IMG/VR virus record: IMGVR_UViG_2737471827_000006
Location: 1-42,725 of that record
Strand: one strand, 5' to 3'
DNA from: a virus
Lineage: Duplodnaviria; Heunggongvirae; Uroviricota; Caudoviricetes
Length of the DNA: 42,725 bases
In this document: one piece after another, positions 29,142-36,825 of the stretch
How the letters are laid out: the number at the start of each line of letters is the position of its first letter
Position numbering within the stretch: position 1 is the stretch's first letter
Program-made: the position numbers and the translations under genes
The notes under the pieces: generated by a model
What the model was told of the DNA's origin: nothing
What the model saw: the letters and a program-made list of their open reading frames with translations, nothing else
The model's database searches: none

Positions 29142-30287
29142 ATGGCACAGGGCTTGCCTGTATCAAACGTTGTTAATGTTGATGTGATCATGTCGCCGCG
29201 TGCAGCATCAGGGCGAAATTTTGGTGCATTACTCATTCTCGGCCCGTCCACAATCATTCCGGTAAGTGAGCGCATTCGCCGTTATTCTGCCGCGGAAGAT
29301 ATTGGAAAAGATTTTGGCGTGGAATCACCAGAATATAAAGCTGCGCAGGTGTTTTTCTCACAATCACCGAAACCTCAGGAGGTTTTTGTTGGTCGTTGGG
29401 TGAAAACGAAGGGAGACAGCGAACAGGCCACGCCTGAGACGCTGGAGCAGGCTGTGAATGCCATGCTTGATTATACTTCATGGTATGGGCTGGGGATTGC
29501 AGACGATGCAGATATTCCGGATGCAGACTGGCTGAAAGTGGCTGCGGCGATCGAATCCTCTTCTGTAAGCCGTATTCTGGCGATTACGACAAGCGATGAA
29601 AAATGCCTGCAGACTGCATCCAGCGATGATTTGGCATCAAAACTGAAAACCGCCGGATATTCACGCAGTTTTATTCAGTATTCATCTGGTAATAAATACG
29701 CTGCGTTATCTGCATTTGGCCGGGCATTCACGGTTAATTTCAATGGCAGTAATACCGCGATTACGCTCAAGTTTAAGCAGGAGCCTGGTGTCGGGTATGA
29801 AACACTGACAGTCAGCCAGGCATCGGCACTTGATGCAAAAAACTGCAATGTGTTCGTGTACTACCAGAATGATACGGCTATCCTCCAGCAGGGAGTGATG
29901 GCTAACGGCGATTTCTTTGATGAACGCCACGGCCTGGACTGGTTACAGAATTATGTGCAGACCAACCTCTATAACCTGCTTTATACCAGCACCACGAAGG
30001 TTCCCCAGACTGAAGCCGGTATTACCCGACTGTTATCAAATGTTGAAAAATCACTGGATCAGGCCGTTCAGAATGGACTGATTGCTCCGGGCGTATGGAA
30101 CGGGGGCGACCTTGGTCAGTTGTCATCAGGTGACACACTGCCCAAAGGTTATTACGTATACGCCCAGCCGCTGGATGAACAGGCACAATCAGAACGTGAA
30201 GCCCGTAAGGCTCCGGTGATTCAGGCTGCAATAAAACTTGCAGGCGCGGTTCATTACGCTGACGTACAGATTAACGTTGTTCGCTAA
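29142..30287 (+). CDS. Putative tail sheath protein
   Basis: 381 aa directly upstream of a 146-aa tube-like gene, a frameshifted chaperone and the tape measure gene; assignment by synteny. Confidence 0.5.
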
Positions 30288-30297
30288 GGGGAAGTGA

Positions 30298-30738
30298 ATG
30301 TCTACCTATTCTTTTATGGATGTCACTGCGACGCTGACCGGGCCGACCGGTTCGATTGACCTCGGGTACGGTTCTGCAAGTTCTGAAGAGGGGATTGTGG
30401 TTGCGATGGGCGGTCCTAAAAACACCATGACCATCGGTTCTGATGGCGAAGTGATGCACAGTCTCCATGCAGATAAAAGCGGGACGATTACCGTTAACCT
30501 TCTGAAGACATCACCGACAAATAAAAAATTGTCGCTGGCGTATAACGCACAGAGCCAGTCTTCTGCCACATGGGGGAATAACGTTATTGTGATCCGAAAC
30601 AAGGTCAGCGGCGACATCATCACGGCACGTAGTGTTGCGTTCCAGAAACAACCGGATAATGCCAACGCTAAAACCGGTAATACGATGCCGTGGGTGTTTG
30701 ACTGCGGCAAGATTGACCAGGTTCTCGGGGAGTTTTAA
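30298..30738 (+). CDS. Putative tail tube protein
   Basis: 146 aa following the sheath-like gene. Confidence 0.5.
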   Translation: MSTYSFMDVTATLTGPTGSIDLGYGSASSEEGIVVAMGGPKNTMTIGSDGEVMHSLHADKSGTITVNLLKTSPTNKKLSLAYNAQSQSSATWGNNVIVIRNKVSGDIITARSVAFQKQPDNANAKTGNTMPWVFDCGKIDQVLGEF

Positions 30739-30741
30739 TAC

Positions 30742-31194
30742 ATGGAATTCGAAATCAAAGGCGTGAAATATCGCGCGGCAAAACTCAGCGTTTTTGATCA
30801 GCTGAAAGTGACCCGCAAACTTCTGCCGGTGCTGGCAGGAATGATGTCAGATTTCGGGAGCATTCGCTCCCGTTTGCCTGCTGATGGCAAAATCGACACC
30901 GTGAAATTCGAGCAGTTAAAACCGGTGTTTGAAACCATGCTCCCGCGTATCGCTGAGGAACTGTCTTCCCTGACCGAAGATGACACCAGTGCGATTATTC
31001 ATCCCTGTCTTGCGGTGGTATCGCGGCGTCATATGGACGGATGGGTTCCGGTATTTACCCAGGGCGAACTGATGTTTGATGATATTGACTTGCTGGTCAT
31101 GCTGCATCTGGTGGCGCGGGTGGTCGCCGATTCGCTGGGAAATTTTTTGCCTACACCCCTTACCAGCACGACGCAGAGCCTGCAACAGGGCTGA
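30742..31194 (+). CDS. Tail assembly chaperone (short form)
   Basis: 150 aa directly upstream of the tape measure gene; T-TTT-TTG slippery heptamer at 31143-31149. Confidence 0.6.
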   Translation: MEFEIKGVKYRAAKLSVFDQLKVTRKLLPVLAGMMSDFGSIRSRLPADGKIDTVKFEQLKPVFETMLPRIAEELSSLTEDDTSAIIHPCLAVVSRRHMDGWVPVFTQGELMFDDIDLLVMLHLVARVVADSLGNFLPTPLTSTTQSLQQG

Positions 31195-31382
31195 CGTTTA
31201 ACAGCCTGCCGGACGGGCTGTCTTACCTTCTCAATCCGGTTGACGCCGGGTTAATTCCTTATACAGCACTTAAAGATGGCTCTGTCGATTTGTACGACAT
31301 TGCTCTCTTGAATGACCATCTGGCGGTAAAAGCGGATAACCAGCGGCGCATTGAGAAATGGAGAGAGGATAATGAACGCTGA
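31146..31382 (+). CDS. -1 frameshift extension of the tail assembly chaperone
   Basis: Stop-free -1 frame for 78 codons from the slippery site to a TGA overlapping the tape-measure ATG; no start codon of its own. Confidence 0.5.
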   Translation, partial: FAYTPYQHDAEPATGLTFNSLPDGLSYLLNPVDAGLIPYTALKDGSVDLYDIALLNDHLAVKADNQRRIEKWREDNER

Positions 31383-33360
31383 AACTATTAAAGATTTCCT
31401 CGTCTCGCTTGGCTTCAGTGTGGATGAGGCAGGAGCGAAAAAGTTCGGTTCTGTCCTCTCCGGTACAACTGCAAATGTCATCAAAATGGGGCTGTCTGTT
31501 GAAGGAGCTGCACTGTCCGTGGTGGCCTTCACGGCTAAGATCGCCTCCGGCCTGGATAATCTTTACTGGGCGTCACAGCGCACCGGCGCGACAGTCCAGG
31601 GAATTCAGTCTATTGGCTATGCGGTTTCGCAGGTTGGCGGCAGCGTGGACGCGGCGCGAACCTCTCTGGAAAGCCTCTCCCGGTTTATTCGTAACAATCC
31701 CGGTGCAGAAGGCTTTCTGAATCGCCTGGGCGTACAGACCCGTGACGCCAGCGGCAACATGCGCGACATGGCCGCTATCTTTACGGGTGTCGGACAGAAG
31801 CTCAGCAGCATGCCGTATTACCGGGCTAACCAGTATGCGCAGATGCTTGGCATTGACGAAAATACCCTCATGGCGATGCGCCGGGGTGTGGGTGATTTCT
31901 CCGGGCAGTACAGCGCAATGGCGAAAGCTATCGGCTTCAATGCTGACGAGGCGGCCAGAAGCTCCAACAAATTTATGACCTCCCTGCGTGAGTTTGGCGC
32001 GATGGCAGGCATGGCCCGTGACAAAATCGGCTCTAATCTTGCGGGTGGGCTTGCGGGTTCGCTGGACACTCTGCGCCGCCATATCCTGGACAACTTCCCG
32101 CGCATCGAGCAGACCCTGACGAAAGCCATAAAAGGCATTCTGGCGCTCGGGGATATTATCGGGCGGCTGTTCTTCAGACTGATTGAAGGAACATCAGGCC
32201 TCATCACCTGGTGGCAATCGCTGGATAAGCAAACGCGGGAGCTCATCTCGCTGTTTGGCGCGCTGACGATTGCGCTGCGCATTCTGAACAGTACGTTCTG
32301 GATGTCGCCGATTGGCCTCATTAGCGCGCTGGCGGCGGGGATTGCCCTTCTGTGGGAGGACTATCAGACCTGGAAGGAAGGCGGCGACAGCCTGATTGAC
32401 TGGGGCAAGTGGAAGCCGGAGGTCGATGCCGCGCTGAAGATGGTTCGTGACCTGAAATGGTCTGTTAATGAACTGGCGAAAGCGCTGGCGAAACTGCTCA
32501 ATATTGACCCCAAATCATGGTCCCTGAAGTGGGATTTCAGCAACTTCATCGACCAGATGGGCGAATTCAGCAAAATGCTGAACATGATCGCCGACCTGCT
32601 CAACGCTATCAAAGATGGCCGCTGGGCTGATGCCGTCAGCATCGGCAAACAGATACTTAATCAGGGCAGCGAAAATCCGTCAGCGATGCCGATGGTTACA
32701 GACAGCGCTAACAGTACTGCCGACTGGATTAAAGAGCACTGGGGATTTGATCCCCGCAGTGTGGGCCGGACGGTACGCGGCTGGTTTGGTGATGATGAGC
32801 CGGAACAACATGCACAGGCTACGAAACGAGGAGAACGGAATAACAATCCGGGAAACCTTAATTTTGCTGGTCAGGCAGGGGCTTCTCTTGAACGCCCGGG
32901 CGGGCGATTTGCCAGATTTGAAACTGCCTTTGATGGATTACGGGCTCTTGCTCGTCAGTTAATGCTGTACGCCGGACGGGGAATAAACAGTGTGGAGAAA
33001 ATTATCTCTACCTGGGCACCTGCGTCTGATAATAACAACACAACTGCGTATATCAGGGCTGTATCGCAACGACTGGGAGTGGATCCCCGGGCTGCCCTGA
33101 ATATGAGCGATCCGCAAACCATGTCAGCATTGATGAGCAGCATTATCCAGCATGAGAATGGAAGAAATATCTATTCTCGAGAGCTGATTAATAAGGCTGC
33201 CGTGGCGGGAATTAGTGGCAAAATGACAGAGGTTAACCAGCAAAATACTTACCACATTTACGGTGGCGGAGATCCGCACGCTGTCGGTAATGAGGTTGCA
33301 CGTCGGCAACAGTCTGCAAATGCTCAGGTCATGCGAAGTAATCAGGTGAGGGTGGGTTAG
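31372..33360 (+). CDS. Tail tape measure protein
   Basis: 662 aa from ATG at 31372 (GAGAGAGG RBS); Ala/Gly-rich helical repeats and predicted TM-like segment. Confidence 0.85.
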   Translation: MNAETIKDFLVSLGFSVDEAGAKKFGSVLSGTTANVIKMGLSVEGAALSVVAFTAKIASGLDNLYWASQRTGATVQGIQSIGYAVSQVGGSVDAARTSLESLSRFIRNNPGAEGFLNRLGVQTRDASGNMRDMAAIFTGVGQKLSSMPYYRANQYAQMLGIDENTLMAMRRGVGDFSGQYSAMAKAIGFNADEAARSSNKFMTSLREFGAMAGMARDKIGSNLAGGLAGSLDTLRRHILDNFPRIEQTLTKAIKGILALGDIIGRLFFRLIEGTSGLITWWQSLDKQTRELISLFGALTIALRILNSTFWMSPIGLISALAAGIALLWEDYQTWKEGGDSLIDWGKWKPEVDAALKMVRDLKWSVNELAKALAKLLNIDPKSWSLKWDFSNFIDQMGEFSKMLNMIADLLNAIKDGRWADAVSIGKQILNQGSENPSAMPMVTDSANSTADWIKEHWGFDPRSVGRTVRGWFGDDEPEQHAQATKRGERNNNPGNLNFAGQAGASLERPGGRFARFETAFDGLRALARQLMLYAGRGINSVEKIISTWAPASDNNNTTAYIRAVSQRLGVDPRAALNMSDPQTMSALMSSIIQHENGRNIYSRELINKAAVAGISGKMTEVNQQNTYHIYGGGDPHAVGNEVARRQQSANAQVMRSNQVRVG

Positions 33361-34251: not shown

Positions 34252-35316
34252 ATGTCACAGAACTGGATGAGACATTTCGAGCTGCAGCTTGTGGACGGGA
34301 ACGGTCAGGGAATTGAGCTAAGTGATTTCAAAGTCACCTTTACGATCGACTGGTTCAACATCAGCAGCGCGTCCCGGGTAGGGACTATCAAAATTTATAA
34401 CCTTTCGGCAGATACTGTGAACCGAATTACCGGGCAGGAGTTTTCGAAAGTGCGGCTGATTGCCGGTTACGACGGTATCGCGCCGGAGGTGGCGGCAAGC
34501 GACGTCGGGACCGTGCGCGAAGTCGACGCGGCAGATGTGGGCCAGAGTGATGGCCGCAATTACGGGCTGATTTTCAGCGGAGAAATTCGCTACTCGGTCA
34601 CAGGAAAAGACAGCCCTATTGATTCCTATGTCCTGATTCAGGCAGCAGATACGGATCTGGCATTTGCCACCAGTATAACCTCACAGACGCTGGCTGCCGG
34701 TTACACGGTCGCAGATGTGAACCGTGCGCTGATGAAAGACTTTGAGGCCAAAGGCGCGGCCGAAGGACTGACGCCTGAAATGCCTGCTACCGTATACCCT
34801 CGAGGGCGGGTGCTGTTCGGCATGACACGGCATCTTATGGATAACGTGGCCGGACAATGTGGCGCAACATGGCAATTTGTGGACGGTCAGCGACAGATGG
34901 TGGCGAATAACGAGTATGTTCACGACGCGATTGTGCTCAACAGCGCCACCGGGCTTATCGGCATGCCGCAGCAGACTATCGGTAACGGCGTAAACGTCCG
35001 CGCTCTTATTAATCCGAACATCCGGGTTAACGGGCTTATTCAGCTGGATCAGGCTTCCGTGTACCGCACCGCGCTGTCGAACAATGATATCGCGAAGGCT
35101 GGTGGGAAGATCACCGACCAGAACACGGACGGAAATATCACGCTAAGCGGCACCACAGCACAACCTGCCAGCATCGCAACGGATGGCGTTTATATTGTGC
35201 GCGGGATTATGTACACTGGCGATACAAGGGGCCAGGCGTGGTACATGGATATGATGTGCGAAGCGCGTGGCGCGCAGGATATGCCATCGAGTACAGCATT
35301 GCAGAGGGGGTTATAG
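34252..35316 (+). CDS. Putative baseplate hub-like protein
   Basis: 354 aa between TMP-proximal genes and baseplate V; assignment by position. Confidence 0.45.
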   Translation: MSQNWMRHFELQLVDGNGQGIELSDFKVTFTIDWFNISSASRVGTIKIYNLSADTVNRITGQEFSKVRLIAGYDGIAPEVAASDVGTVREVDAADVGQSDGRNYGLIFSGEIRYSVTGKDSPIDSYVLIQAADTDLAFATSITSQTLAAGYTVADVNRALMKDFEAKGAAEGLTPEMPATVYPRGRVLFGMTRHLMDNVAGQCGATWQFVDGQRQMVANNEYVHDAIVLNSATGLIGMPQQTIGNGVNVRALINPNIRVNGLIQLDQASVYRTALSNNDIAKAGGKITDQNTDGNITLSGTTAQPASIATDGVYIVRGIMYTGDTRGQAWYMDMMCEARGAQDMPSSTALQRGL

Positions 35317-35318
35317 AA

Positions 35319-35666
35319 ATGAAACGATGGATTTTTTCATTGCTGGCGTTAGCGTCTGTTGGCGCAAGTGCAAACACCATAACGATGCAATGTGGTAACT
35401 TTCGTATGGACGCAATCCCTGACTCATTGTTTAAAATCAATGGCGAAACCGTAACATCCCAAAAAGTTAAGATGCTGGGCAAAGACGGTACAGGCATGCA
35501 GATCAAAATGGGACTGATGCCTGCTAAAGATGGCAACAACTATGGGTTTGAGTATATCCATCGTCCGGGTACCGAAACGCGTTTCCTGAACGTCCAGCTT
35601 CTGCAGAACAGCATGGATGCACCGAAAATCATCGGATCTTTCCCGTGTAAAAAGGTTGATGGTTAA
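35319..35666 (+). CDS. Small secreted protein with signal peptide (accessory gene)
   Basis: 115 aa from ATG at 35319 (GAGGGGG RBS); N-terminus MKRWIFSLLALASVGASA is a classic Sec signal with AxA cleavage site; two Cys in the mature part. Confidence 0.6.
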   Translation: MKRWIFSLLALASVGASANTITMQCGNFRMDAIPDSLFKINGETVTSQKVKMLGKDGTGMQIKMGLMPAKDGNNYGFEYIHRPGTETRFLNVQLLQNSMDAPKIIGSFPCKKVDG

Positions 35667-35779
35667 CCCAAAGTTACATTTCTGCATAGTGTTGAGTTTG
35701 TTCACATTCACTAAATAATGATTTTTTATCGCTTGCTAGGTGGTTGCATGATCACTAAACTTTGCGAACTTTTAGCGCT

Positions 35780-35808
35780 CAGCTAACTTTGAATAAGTGG
35801 TGTATAGT
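35780..35808 (+). promoter_or_regulatory. Candidate promoter for the two-gene accessory operon
   Basis: TG-adjacent -10 TATAGT in an AT-rich 160-bp intergenic region; weak -35; about 25 nt upstream of the RBS. Confidence 0.3.
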
Positions 35809-35834
35809 CGTTTAAAACGACAGAGGGATTGGGT

Positions 35835-36407
35835 ATGGCGATTAGCTACGCATTTGCGCTGGCAACAATTACACAACAAATGAATCAGGTTCAGGAAGCT
35901 GTTAACGGTGCTTTCAAACCCCTGATCTCTAATGCTTGTGAACTGCCACAACGATTAGATGCTGAAGAGGTATTTCGTCGTTGTACCGCGATTGCTGCAC
36001 GCGCTCAAGAAATCGAAAATACCGCGAAGGAAGGCATGTCTCATCTCGAAGCTTTTCGAAATGGGAGAATCATTGTTGATGAGCTTCCGGAAGAGTTTTT
36101 ATCCCATCTCGAAGGTCTTGCCAAGGCATGCCGAAATGCTAAAGGACATTTAGTGGATATGTTCTCTGAAGCGGAAAGGTCCCCTATGTGGCAAGGCCAT
36201 CTGCAAATGTTGCGCCCATTAAAACGCAAATATGTTCGTGCGTTGACCGCCGTCGAGAACACTGCAACTCAGTTGGCCGCTGAAGTTAGGCAATCGCAGC
36301 CTTTCCAGGCTGAACTCTTGTCAGATAATGTTACCCGTGAAGAGGCTATTGAACTGATCTCAACATCGCATAAGATGCTGGGAGCCAACGCCCATAAATG
36401 GATGTGA
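35835..36407 (+). CDS. Hypothetical protein A of accessory two-gene operon
   Basis: 190 aa from ATG at 35835 (GAGGG 7 nt upstream); predicted largely helical; no recognisable family; lower GC than flanking tail genes. Confidence 0.6.
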   Translation: MAISYAFALATITQQMNQVQEAVNGAFKPLISNACELPQRLDAEEVFRRCTAIAARAQEIENTAKEGMSHLEAFRNGRIIVDELPEEFLSHLEGLAKACRNAKGHLVDMFSEAERSPMWQGHLQMLRPLKRKYVRALTAVENTATQLAAEVRQSQPFQAELLSDNVTREEAIELISTSHKMLGANAHKWM

Positions 36408-36408
36408 C

Positions 36409-36825
36409 ATGGCAAAAGTCAGTATCACGGGAGAATTGCGTCATTTAGCTGCAGCACATAAGTATGCTCAAATGCTTGCCGATTATATTTCAAAGGGTTC
36501 CCAGTTCTGGTGTTTTGGTTCGTTAGGCGGTTTTGAACGTAACTATGATGCGATGGCTGCCAACATCAGGAAAATTCACTTAAAGCTACCTGGCGATAAA
36601 CCCTGGCCTCCAGAAGCATCTCTGAGTGAACGGACATGTGATAATTTTTTGGTATATGCTCAGCATCTTTATATCGATGAACACTATCAGATATTGGCAA
36701 TCATCAGCCCAAACGCTCATCAGCAAGCTGATTCGATGCTTCCCCGGCTGATAAAATTAGCAGAGGAAACCTTCATAGAACTTCCTCCTGATGAACTCGA
36801 AAAATTGAAAACCTACGATTCATAA
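36409..36825 (+). CDS. Hypothetical protein B of accessory two-gene operon
   Basis: 138 aa; start 1 nt after the stop of gene A; followed directly by a strong terminator. Confidence 0.6.
   Translation: MAKVSITGELRHLAAAHKYAQMLADYISKGSQFWCFGSLGGFERNYDAMAANIRKIHLKLPGDKPWPPEASLSERTCDNFLVYAQHLYIDEHYQILAIISPNAHQQADSMLPRLIKLAEETFIELPPDELEKLKTYDS

Follow-up and report, generated by a model that had tools for sequence, protein, structure and literature searches.

A probable programmed −1 ribosomal frameshift in the tail assembly chaperone gene of a temperate Escherichia coli myovirus, resembling those of lambda G/GT and P2 E/E+E′

The closest described systems are those of phages lambda and P2. In lambda, the G and GT proteins are two products from one start, made at about 30:1; the tape measure protein is coated by G, the tube protein is recruited by T, and both products are missing from the virion (Levin et al. 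1993 and Xu et al. 2004, 2013, 2014, summarized in PMC5009743). In P2, E and E+E′ are related by a −1 shift at TTTTTTG, for which the passage in PMC3091744 that cites Christie et al. 2002 gives no downstream hairpin. Here we analysed the tail assembly chaperone gene in a stretch of 42,725 nucleotides (nt) of DNA, the window, which is positions 1 to 42,725 of IMG/VR virus record IMGVR_UViG_2737471827_000006. An earlier note on this DNA had proposed a programmed −1 frameshift of the G/GT type in this gene. The identity of the chaperone, a conserved domain without a start in the −1 frame, a conserved slippery heptamer, and the joined gene in the record of Klebsiella phage Mulock support that reading, and the chaperone gene of this temperate E. 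coli myovirus very probably undergoes programmed −1 frameshifting by the ribosome, as do lambda G/GT and P2 E/E+E′.

The anatomy of the locus can be read directly from the window (Table 1). Positions 31137-31149 are G GGA AAT TTT TTG. The first T of the heptamer T_TTT_TTG (31143-31149) is at codon position 3, which gives the X_XXY_YYZ register over codons 134-136 of the chaperone. With the TTG as codon 136 and the stop as codon 151, the heptamer lies exactly 15 codons before the chaperone stop, as the earlier note had it; the chaperone ends in ...ADSLGNFLPTPLTSTTQSLQQG before this stop. In the −1 frame, the last upstream stop is the TGA at 31086-31088, and the frame is then open from 31089 to the TGA at 31380-31382. 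The first codon after a slip is GCC at 31149, and 76 further sense codons follow (78 codons in all with the stop), which adds up to a predicted fusion of 136 + 77 = 213 amino acids (aa). Since the ATG of the tape-measure gene is at 31372, the TGA of the T frame sits inside the tape-measure open reading frame (ORF), at 8-10 nt within it, giving an overlap of 11 nt. The 78-codon open frame, the stop overlapping the tape-measure start, and the product of roughly 213 aa had all been predicted, and all three were reproduced. The +1 frame reaches a stop at 31199, 17 codons past the run, and does not contain the DUF6889 domain. Therefore, only the −1 frame is productive, and a −2 or +1 shift was rejected.

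The sequence features by which Xu, Hendrix & Duda (2004) define G/GT genes can be recognized at this locus; in the same definition, the fusion is made at a low fixed ratio and is needed for tails to assemble. The tube and tape-measure genes flank two overlapping ORFs, of which the second is in the −1 frame, with no ATG/GTG start or ribosome binding site of its own, and an in-register X_XXY_YYZ heptamer lies within the overlap. Moreover, the arrangement and the slip site are kept in diverged relatives (52/52 non-redundant loci).

The likeness to P2 is close at the slip site. P2 has the identical T_TTT_TTG, also in register and only a few codons short of the end of a small gene. Like the window, P2 is a temperate coliphage with a contractile tail, and its small gene likewise has the tube gene on one side and the tape-measure gene on the other. 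The end of the extension overlaps the tape-measure start in both (8 nt with gene T in P2, 11 nt in the window), neither has a downstream hairpin, and GGTGG stands 5′ of the run in both, the P2 context being AAG GTG GTC GGT TTT TTG TCG (NC_001895). The two differ in that P2 has a single heptamer (GGT TTT TTG) where the window has a 13-nt triple run, and in the lengths of the products (91 aa for E and 142 aa for E+E′, compared with 150 and 213 aa in the window). The efficiency of the P2 frameshift is about 10%. The P2 shift has been verified experimentally, whereas that of the window is predicted from its sequence. No homology to P2 gpE was detected by BLASTP (E = 16) or by hhalign (probability 0.6% over 15 columns, in the helix before the slip site), and the window proteins belong to PF21822 and PF21829. 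Therefore, the locus was not placed in the P2 gpE/gpE+E′ family, despite the identical heptamer. The C-terminus of P2 gpE, K-V-V-G-F-L (AAGGTGGTCGGTTTTTTG, L149 670-706), resembles R-V-V-ADSLG-N-F-L of the window (CGGGTGGTC...TTTTTTG, 31117-31152), and this resemblance could be convergence or very remote homology.

The likeness to lambda is in the organization. A chaperone and a −1-extended chaperone are encoded between the major tail protein and tape-measure genes, and neither product is expected in the virion, in lambda as in the window. Lambda slips on G_GGA_AAG, from which G_GGA_AAT of the window differs at the last base only, but lambda is a siphovirus and its proteins belong to different families. 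An ortholog with 63% aa identity in G and the same 13-nt run and architecture is found in Klebsiella phage Mulock (CPT_Mulock_014/015, MN098327). The Mulock record contains a joined coding sequence (CDS) named 'tape measure chaperone frameshift product'; this join is annotation only, and the Mulock genome announcement does not discuss the frameshift. Most other records, including those of E. coli in RefSeq, keep the G and T parts separate. In a December 2025 paper, a poly-T −1 site, GTTTTT, is reported to be conserved at the chaperone locus of Vandenendeviridae (Pakpunavirus) and Andersonviridae, where the extension is likewise mis-annotated as a hypothetical gene (PMC12846349). These phages also have contractile tails and belong to the same structural lineage (KPP10-type tube), but they are virulent phages, of Pseudomonas among others, they are distant in sequence, and their motif is GTTTTT rather than NNT_TTT_TTG.

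Both parts of the predicted fusion belong to known families. The chaperone matched Pfam Phage_TAC_15 (PF21822; E = 2.4e-30; 106.1 bits, where the cut-off is 22) and, among the PHROGs, number 1688, 'tail assembly chaperone' (E = 1.7e-64). The extension contains a DUF6889 domain and matched PHROG 4364, a 54-aa family of 'unknown function' (E = 1.8e-23), and these two matches indicate that the −1 extension is coding. NCBIfam has no model for the G or the T part. The 662-aa tape measure protein gave weak matches below the cut-offs to PhageMin_Tail (E = 3e-5) and TIGR01760 (E = 1e-3), and its relatives are labelled tape measure or lytic transglycosylase. An AlphaFold2 model was built on P0001, a natural single-ORF version of the fusion. 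Because its predicted local distance difference test score was moderate (59.8), we used the model for the domain layout and the chaperone fold match only. In the model, the G domain ends with a helix (117-136), which is followed by a low-confidence linker (134-182) and a C-terminal helix (184-211), and this layout puts the slip site at a predicted domain boundary. The best Foldseek matches of the model in BFVD were myovirus tail assembly chaperones (E = 5e-9), and the tape measure chaperone of Citrobacter phage Moogle was among the weaker ones; no sequence relatives were found in the PDB at E ≤ 1. As the earlier note had proposed, the frameshift supports the chaperone and tape-measure assignments, and both are confirmed by it; the chaperone is also identified by Pfam, PHROG, the fold, and the position between tube and tape measure.

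The locus was found in 315 of 5426 complete E. coli genomes (80-99.6% identity) and in 28 phage records (65-97% identity), including Escherichia phage vB_EcoM-606R2, Yersinia phage YP3, Salmonella phage SEN34, Klebsiella phages Mulock and GZ7, and Hafnia phage yong1. Another 55 loci came from species-representative genomes that were scanned; their protein identity ranges between 81% and 29%, and among them are loci in Photorhabdus, Erwinia, Pantoea, Arsenophonus, Sphingomonas, Pseudochelatococcus, and Bryobacterales. Removal of redundancy at 97% left 52 sequences for the conservation counts. NNT_TTT_TTN is in register at the homologous position in every one of them, and its last base is G in 47, T in four, and C in one. 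Phe135 is TTT in 52/52, while TTT makes up 47% in the rest of the gene; Leu136 is TTG in 47/47 (9% elsewhere) and Asn134 is AAT in 44/44 (47% elsewhere). Codons 134-136 have the top single-codon dominance among 104 conserved-residue columns, and sliding synonymous identity peaks at 0.69-0.74 on codons 132-138, compared with 0.50 gene-wide. As judged from these alignments, the slippery heptamer is the strongest conserved nucleotide feature of the gene in relatives down to 29% identity. In Bryobacterales, C_CCT_TTT or the U_UUU tetramer alone is at the homologous place. Two copies have an extra frame break, inside G in L020 (Apirhabdus apintestini) and inside the T extension in L034 (Enterobacter sp. 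R1); both keep the T6 run, and they look like decaying prophages or assembly errors. The host attribution of two others looks doubtful, namely L010 (OM284015, 'Elizabethkingia phage EKP1'), which has the exact 13-mer at about 70% nt identity, and L024 (a 'Chryseobacterium sp. 18061' contig), which lacks the leading G of the 13-mer at 67% protein identity; both carry this tail module, which is of enterobacterial type, and their attribution to Bacteroidota hosts is possibly due to contamination or mislabelling.

The −1 frame is open in all intact relatives. After the run it encodes F-(L/F)-A-R-T-P-(R/Y)-Q-R-D across the family, and its Arg is spelled CGA, AGG, or CGC while the residue in the 0 frame varies between E, G, and A. 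These synonymous changes over a varying 0-frame residue indicate that purifying selection acts on the −1 frame, beginning with the codon that follows the slip. The earlier note had suggested a look at the extension frame in related phages, and the two-frame arrangement turned out to be kept in all 52 loci. The place of the shift is also delimited. A −1-frame stop lies immediately 5′ of TTT_TTT in L038, L053, L056, and L059, and in four phages (L006, L008, L010, and L012) the −1 frame opens only 3 nt before G_GGA_AAT, so a shift further upstream is impossible in these loci. Dual coding is visible elsewhere in the region. The final codons in the T frame vary unusually little (R208 is AGA in 38/41 and N211 is AAT in 39/42; 31360-31374) because they double as the SD (Shine-Dalgarno) sequence and start of the tape-measure gene (GGAGAGAGGATAATG), and D144, fixed as GAC in the G/T overlap, shows a similar effect.

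From this arrangement we infer the following mechanism. Most ribosomes would read 30742-31194 and release the 150-aa chaperone. A minority would slip back by one base on U_UUU_UUG (31143-31149), with tRNA-Phe (UUU) in the peptidyl (P) site and tRNA-Leu (UUG) in the aminoacyl (A) site, and would then read GCC at 31149 and 77 codons in all up to the TGA at 31380. In their product of 213 aa and about 23.5 kDa, the body of the chaperone would be joined through a flexible linker to DUF6889, a small helical domain. In the clade of the window, G_GGA_AAU and A_AAU_UUU may give up to two earlier chances for the same shift, and the slip would operate with no 3′ RNA structure, the upstream GGUGG possibly helping. 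By analogy with lambda, the shared G part may coat and bind the tape measure protein and the T part may recruit and bind the tube protein, and the frequency of the slip would then fix the ratio of the two products.

The single heptamer first noted is part of a 13-nt run of three consecutive in-register heptamers, G_GGA_AAT starting at 31137, A_AAT_TTT at 31140, and T_TTT_TTG at 31143. The 13-mer (GGGAAATTTTTTG) is identical in 12/12 phage and prophage loci whose flanks are only about 70% identical at the nt level, and in 79/80 IMG/VR loci, but only T_TTT_TTG is universal across the wider family. The leading G of G_GGA_AAT has been lost through synonymous Leu changes in L024, L035, L046, and L065, and this heptamer is thus probably incidental. 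A_AAT_TTT, on the other hand, appears to be selected, since in lineages with Asn134 the codon of Gly133 is GGA in 43/51 sequences, compared with 13% of Gly codons elsewhere, and the A of this codon is needed only for A_AAT_TTT. In the E. coli assay of Sharma et al. (PMC4066793), UUN and AAN were the most shift-prone A-site codons, UUU and UUC ranked above UUG, and R_RR.U_UU.Y motifs were notably efficient. A_AAU_UUU may therefore contribute materially to the slip in this clade.

One could go further and suppose that the dominant slip occurs one codon earlier, on A_AAU_UUU (AAU in the P site, UUU in the A site), with U_UUU_UUG as an ancestral back-up, which would refine rather than replace the programmed ribosomal shift. 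The ranking of Sharma et al. and the constraint on Gly133 agree with this, as does the position of the upstream GGTGG, which lies 17 nt before A_AAT_TTT's second base, within the tested range of 6-17 nt, but 20 nt before that of T_TTT_TTG. However, A_AAT_TTT is absent in nine lineages that have the frameshift architecture (L038, L047, L053, L055-L057, L059, L063, and L066), and in four of the nine a −1 stop excludes an upstream slip. A_AAT_TTT is therefore not the ancestral or essential site, and we consider dominance of the earlier slip rather unlikely. The two cases predict fusions of equal length with different junctions. The junction would read ...GNFFAY... if one of the two upstream heptamers is used, and ...GNFLAY... 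if T_TTT_TTG is used. Thus, a junction peptide ...SLGNFLAYTPYQHDAEPATGLTFNSLPDGLSYLLNPVDAGLIPYTALK would correspond to a slip on U_UUU_UUG, and ...SLGNFFAYTPYQ... to a slip on A_AAU_UUU or G_GGA_AAU, or to a transcript with U7.

The GGTGG upstream of the run is of the GGNGG class, one of the SD-like classes validated experimentally by Sharma et al. (PMC4066793). It is 20 nt before T_TTT_TTG, outside the 6-17 nt range, whereas its spacing to the two upstream heptamers is 14 and 17 nt. Across the family, 17/52 loci have an SD-like element at 6-17 nt from T_TTT_TTN, compared with a background of 10.8%, and V127 is GTG in 45/51 sequences. However, the Photorhabdus loci, L025, and L063 lack GGTGG, and the element overlaps the codons of a conserved R-V-V protein motif. 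GGTGG is thus suggestive as a stimulator, and in view of the overlap with R-V-V and the absence in Photorhabdus we neither accept nor reject this role. The loci without the upstream heptamers mostly have GGAG or GGAGG 12-15 nt before T_TTT_TTG, and the GGAGG at 13-15 nt appears to be a stronger element, which hints at a trade-off between the number of heptamers and an SD-like stimulator. A tentative possibility, which we consider doubtful, is that the 13-nt run is a selected tandem slippery site with three additive chances of a −1 shift, giving a usable rate without a 3′ RNA structure, and that GGUGG, which is spaced for the first two heptamers, might assist it. E. coli dnaX is similar in that a −1 slip occurs on a homopolymeric heptamer ending in G, with a possible SD-like element upstream in the window as in dnaX. 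It differs in having a strong 3′ hairpin, a well-placed SD, an efficiency of about 50%, and a frameshift product that is the shorter one, whereas the window has no hairpin and the spacing of its GGTGG is borderline or falls beyond the effective range.

Several points weigh against a ribosomal shift at this site. The earlier note had proposed RNA folding as a way to find a downstream stimulatory structure, and none was found. Single-sequence folds of +1..+61 and +1..+121 were not significant compared with shuffles (z = −0.6 and −1.2), and an alifold consensus of 10 relatives had 10 pairs with 0 compensatory changes. We also applied the hairpin criteria of Sharma et al. (a start 4-10 nt past the motif, at least 7.6 kcal/mol, and kept in at least 50% of the family) to the 52 loci; no such hairpin was present in the window, and those of other loci were heterogeneous in size and spacing. 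Rfam gave no match at E ≤ 1. The only stable conserved hairpin in the consensus is about 90 nt downstream, within a coding stretch for the conserved P-V-D-A-G. A structured downstream stimulator was thus rejected, but this does not weaken the case for the ribosomal shift, since the passage on P2 in PMC3091744 has the identical heptamer working without a hairpin. Furthermore, U_UUU_UUG is outside the 18 motifs that were both efficient without stimulators in the E. coli assay and under-represented in genes (PMC4066793), and UUG is a heterogeneous A-site codon. The shift in this family is also a prediction from sequence, and the in-silico data fit slippage of the ribosome or of RNA polymerase on the T6 alike.

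Transcriptional slippage would mean that RNA polymerase adds an extra U on the T6, so that a minority of mRNAs encode G-T in frame. The conserved element is indeed a homopolymer, T6 or, in some lineages, T7, and T7 variants that fuse the frames at the DNA level occur in assemblies, indicating a tendency of the run to gain or lose bases. In bacteria, programmed realignment during transcription uses runs of about nine or more, relative to which T6 is short. Polymerase slippage would benefit from a longer run, yet in 47/52 the base after the run is G and not a seventh T. Moreover, in Bryobacterales the run is reduced to T4 in C_CCT_TTT, which is still a ribosomal heptamer, and the identical P2 site is described as translational in the part of PMC3091744 concerned. 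We therefore regard transcriptional slippage as improbable. The single-ORF T7 form is found in about 10 assemblies, while the cluster with G alone has more than 1000 members, and in 0/80 IMG/VR loci, 80/80 of which have T6. Examples are protein P0001 from Logan SRR23924998 (L148 1894-1911) and E. coli ISC7 CDL28562.1, each with a 213-aa ORF (...GNFFAYT...); these variants may be homopolymer sequencing errors or real indel variants.

The DUF6889 ORF could also be a gene of its own, translated from a non-canonical start. Such an ORF is annotated by RefSeq PGAP, as a stand-alone 'DUF6889 family protein' from a CTG (31218-31382 in the window, L002 1221-1385), and as a separate CDS of 50-59 aa in several GenBank records, and both PHROGs and Pfam treat DUF6889 as its own family. 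However, the −1 frame of the window has no ATG or GTG past the run; its only TTG codons, codons 48 and 54 of the extension, have no SD and lie inside the DUF6889 domain, and the CTG chosen by PGAP has no SD either. The annotated starts vary between records, where the product is called 'hypothetical' or 'NTP pyrophosphohydrolase', no start position is shared across the 52 relatives, and L053 has no start codon at all in the −1 frame. In addition, protein-level conservation of the −1 frame extends through the 23 codons 5′ of the PGAP start as far as the slippery run. We therefore rejected a start of its own for the T ORF, and we give two separate genes very little probability. The stand-alone calls for DUF6889 and PHROG 4364 are artefacts of an unmodelled frameshift. 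We found no mention of DUF6889 in the papers searched.

The heptamer alone is not rare in this DNA. TTTTTTG occurs 24 times on both strands of the window (13.5 expected), and 0/100 shuffles reached 24; AT-rich intergenic regions, terminators, and codon bias are candidate causes of this excess. In-register XXXYYYZ heptamers are scarcer, with seven at 1974 codon positions of seven tail ORFs, three of the seven being the run at 31137-31149, and at this rate about 0.1 would be expected in the 34-codon overlap. What argues decisively against chance is the comparative evidence. That the arrangement arose by chance, or is a decayed pseudogene of one original gene, is as good as negligible despite the frequency of TTTTTTG and the rare single-ORF versions, given that it is found in 52 diverse lineages, 80/80 IMG/VR loci, and 315 complete E. 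coli genomes, and that the G-only and G-T coding signals are both under selection.

Table 1. Positions in the window of the frameshift locus and of neighbouring features
Feature	Coordinates	Strand	Remarks
Tail assembly chaperone (gene G equivalent)	30742-31194	+	150 aa, zero-frame product
GGTGG	31119-31123	+	Possible internal Shine-Dalgarno-like stimulator; GGNGG class, unproven
13-nt run G_GGA_AAT_TTT_TTG	31137-31149	+	Three consecutive in-register heptamers
Core slippery heptamer T_TTT_TTG	31143-31149	+	P site TTT, A site TTG
−1 extension ('T' part)	31149-31382	+	77 codons + TGA, predicted to be translated only after the shift
DUF6889 domain	31257-31373	+	Residues 37-75 of the extension; PF21829, E = 1.2e-20, 73.4 bits against a cut-off of 23.9
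Tape measure gene	31372-33360	+	662 aa; ATG 31372; SD GGAGAGAGGA at 31360-31369
Tail sheath gene	29142-30287	+	Pfam DUF3383, E = 5e-101; 'tail sheath' in SEN34
Tail tube gene	30298-30738	+	Pfam KPP10_Orf10, E = 7e-60; directly 5′ of chaperone
Small ORF	35295-35666		Signal-peptide-like N-terminus; no Pfam match
192-aa ORF	35829-36407		Weak EAD5 match below cut-off
YafO-family type II toxin	36409-36825		PF13957, E = 4e-17

The neighbouring genes form a tail and baseplate module. Dit-like, Pam3 gp18-like, and hub gp41-like baseplate genes lie 3′ of the tape measure. Within this module, 35295-36825 is a cargo block, which is probably a moron or toxin-antitoxin insertion. Escherichia phage vB_EcoM-606R2 has 97% identity over the 1.6-kb query, the window gave no tRNA genes, and it may be a complete temperate myovirus genome of the vB_EcoM-606R2 group.

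The frameshift is a textbook recoding event in the expected place and scientifically changes little. This kind of G/GT-type frameshift is already known, and so is the orthologous join in the Mulock record; what may be new is the apparent selection on the tandem run, together with a possible trade-off of the number of heptamers against an SD-like element. Re-annotation is where the practical value lies. DUF6889, PHROG 4364, and the RefSeq 'DUF6889 family protein', and likewise the product sometimes labelled 'NTP pyrophosphohydrolase', represent the C-terminal part of a chaperone made by frameshifting. About 315/5426 complete E. coli genomes carry the mis-annotation, as do many prophages of Klebsiella, Salmonella, Photorhabdus, Erwinia, and Pantoea. 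Furthermore, with one, two, or three heptamers, and with or without an SD-like element, the family is a natural series for the efficiency of −1 frameshifting without a stimulator in bacteria.

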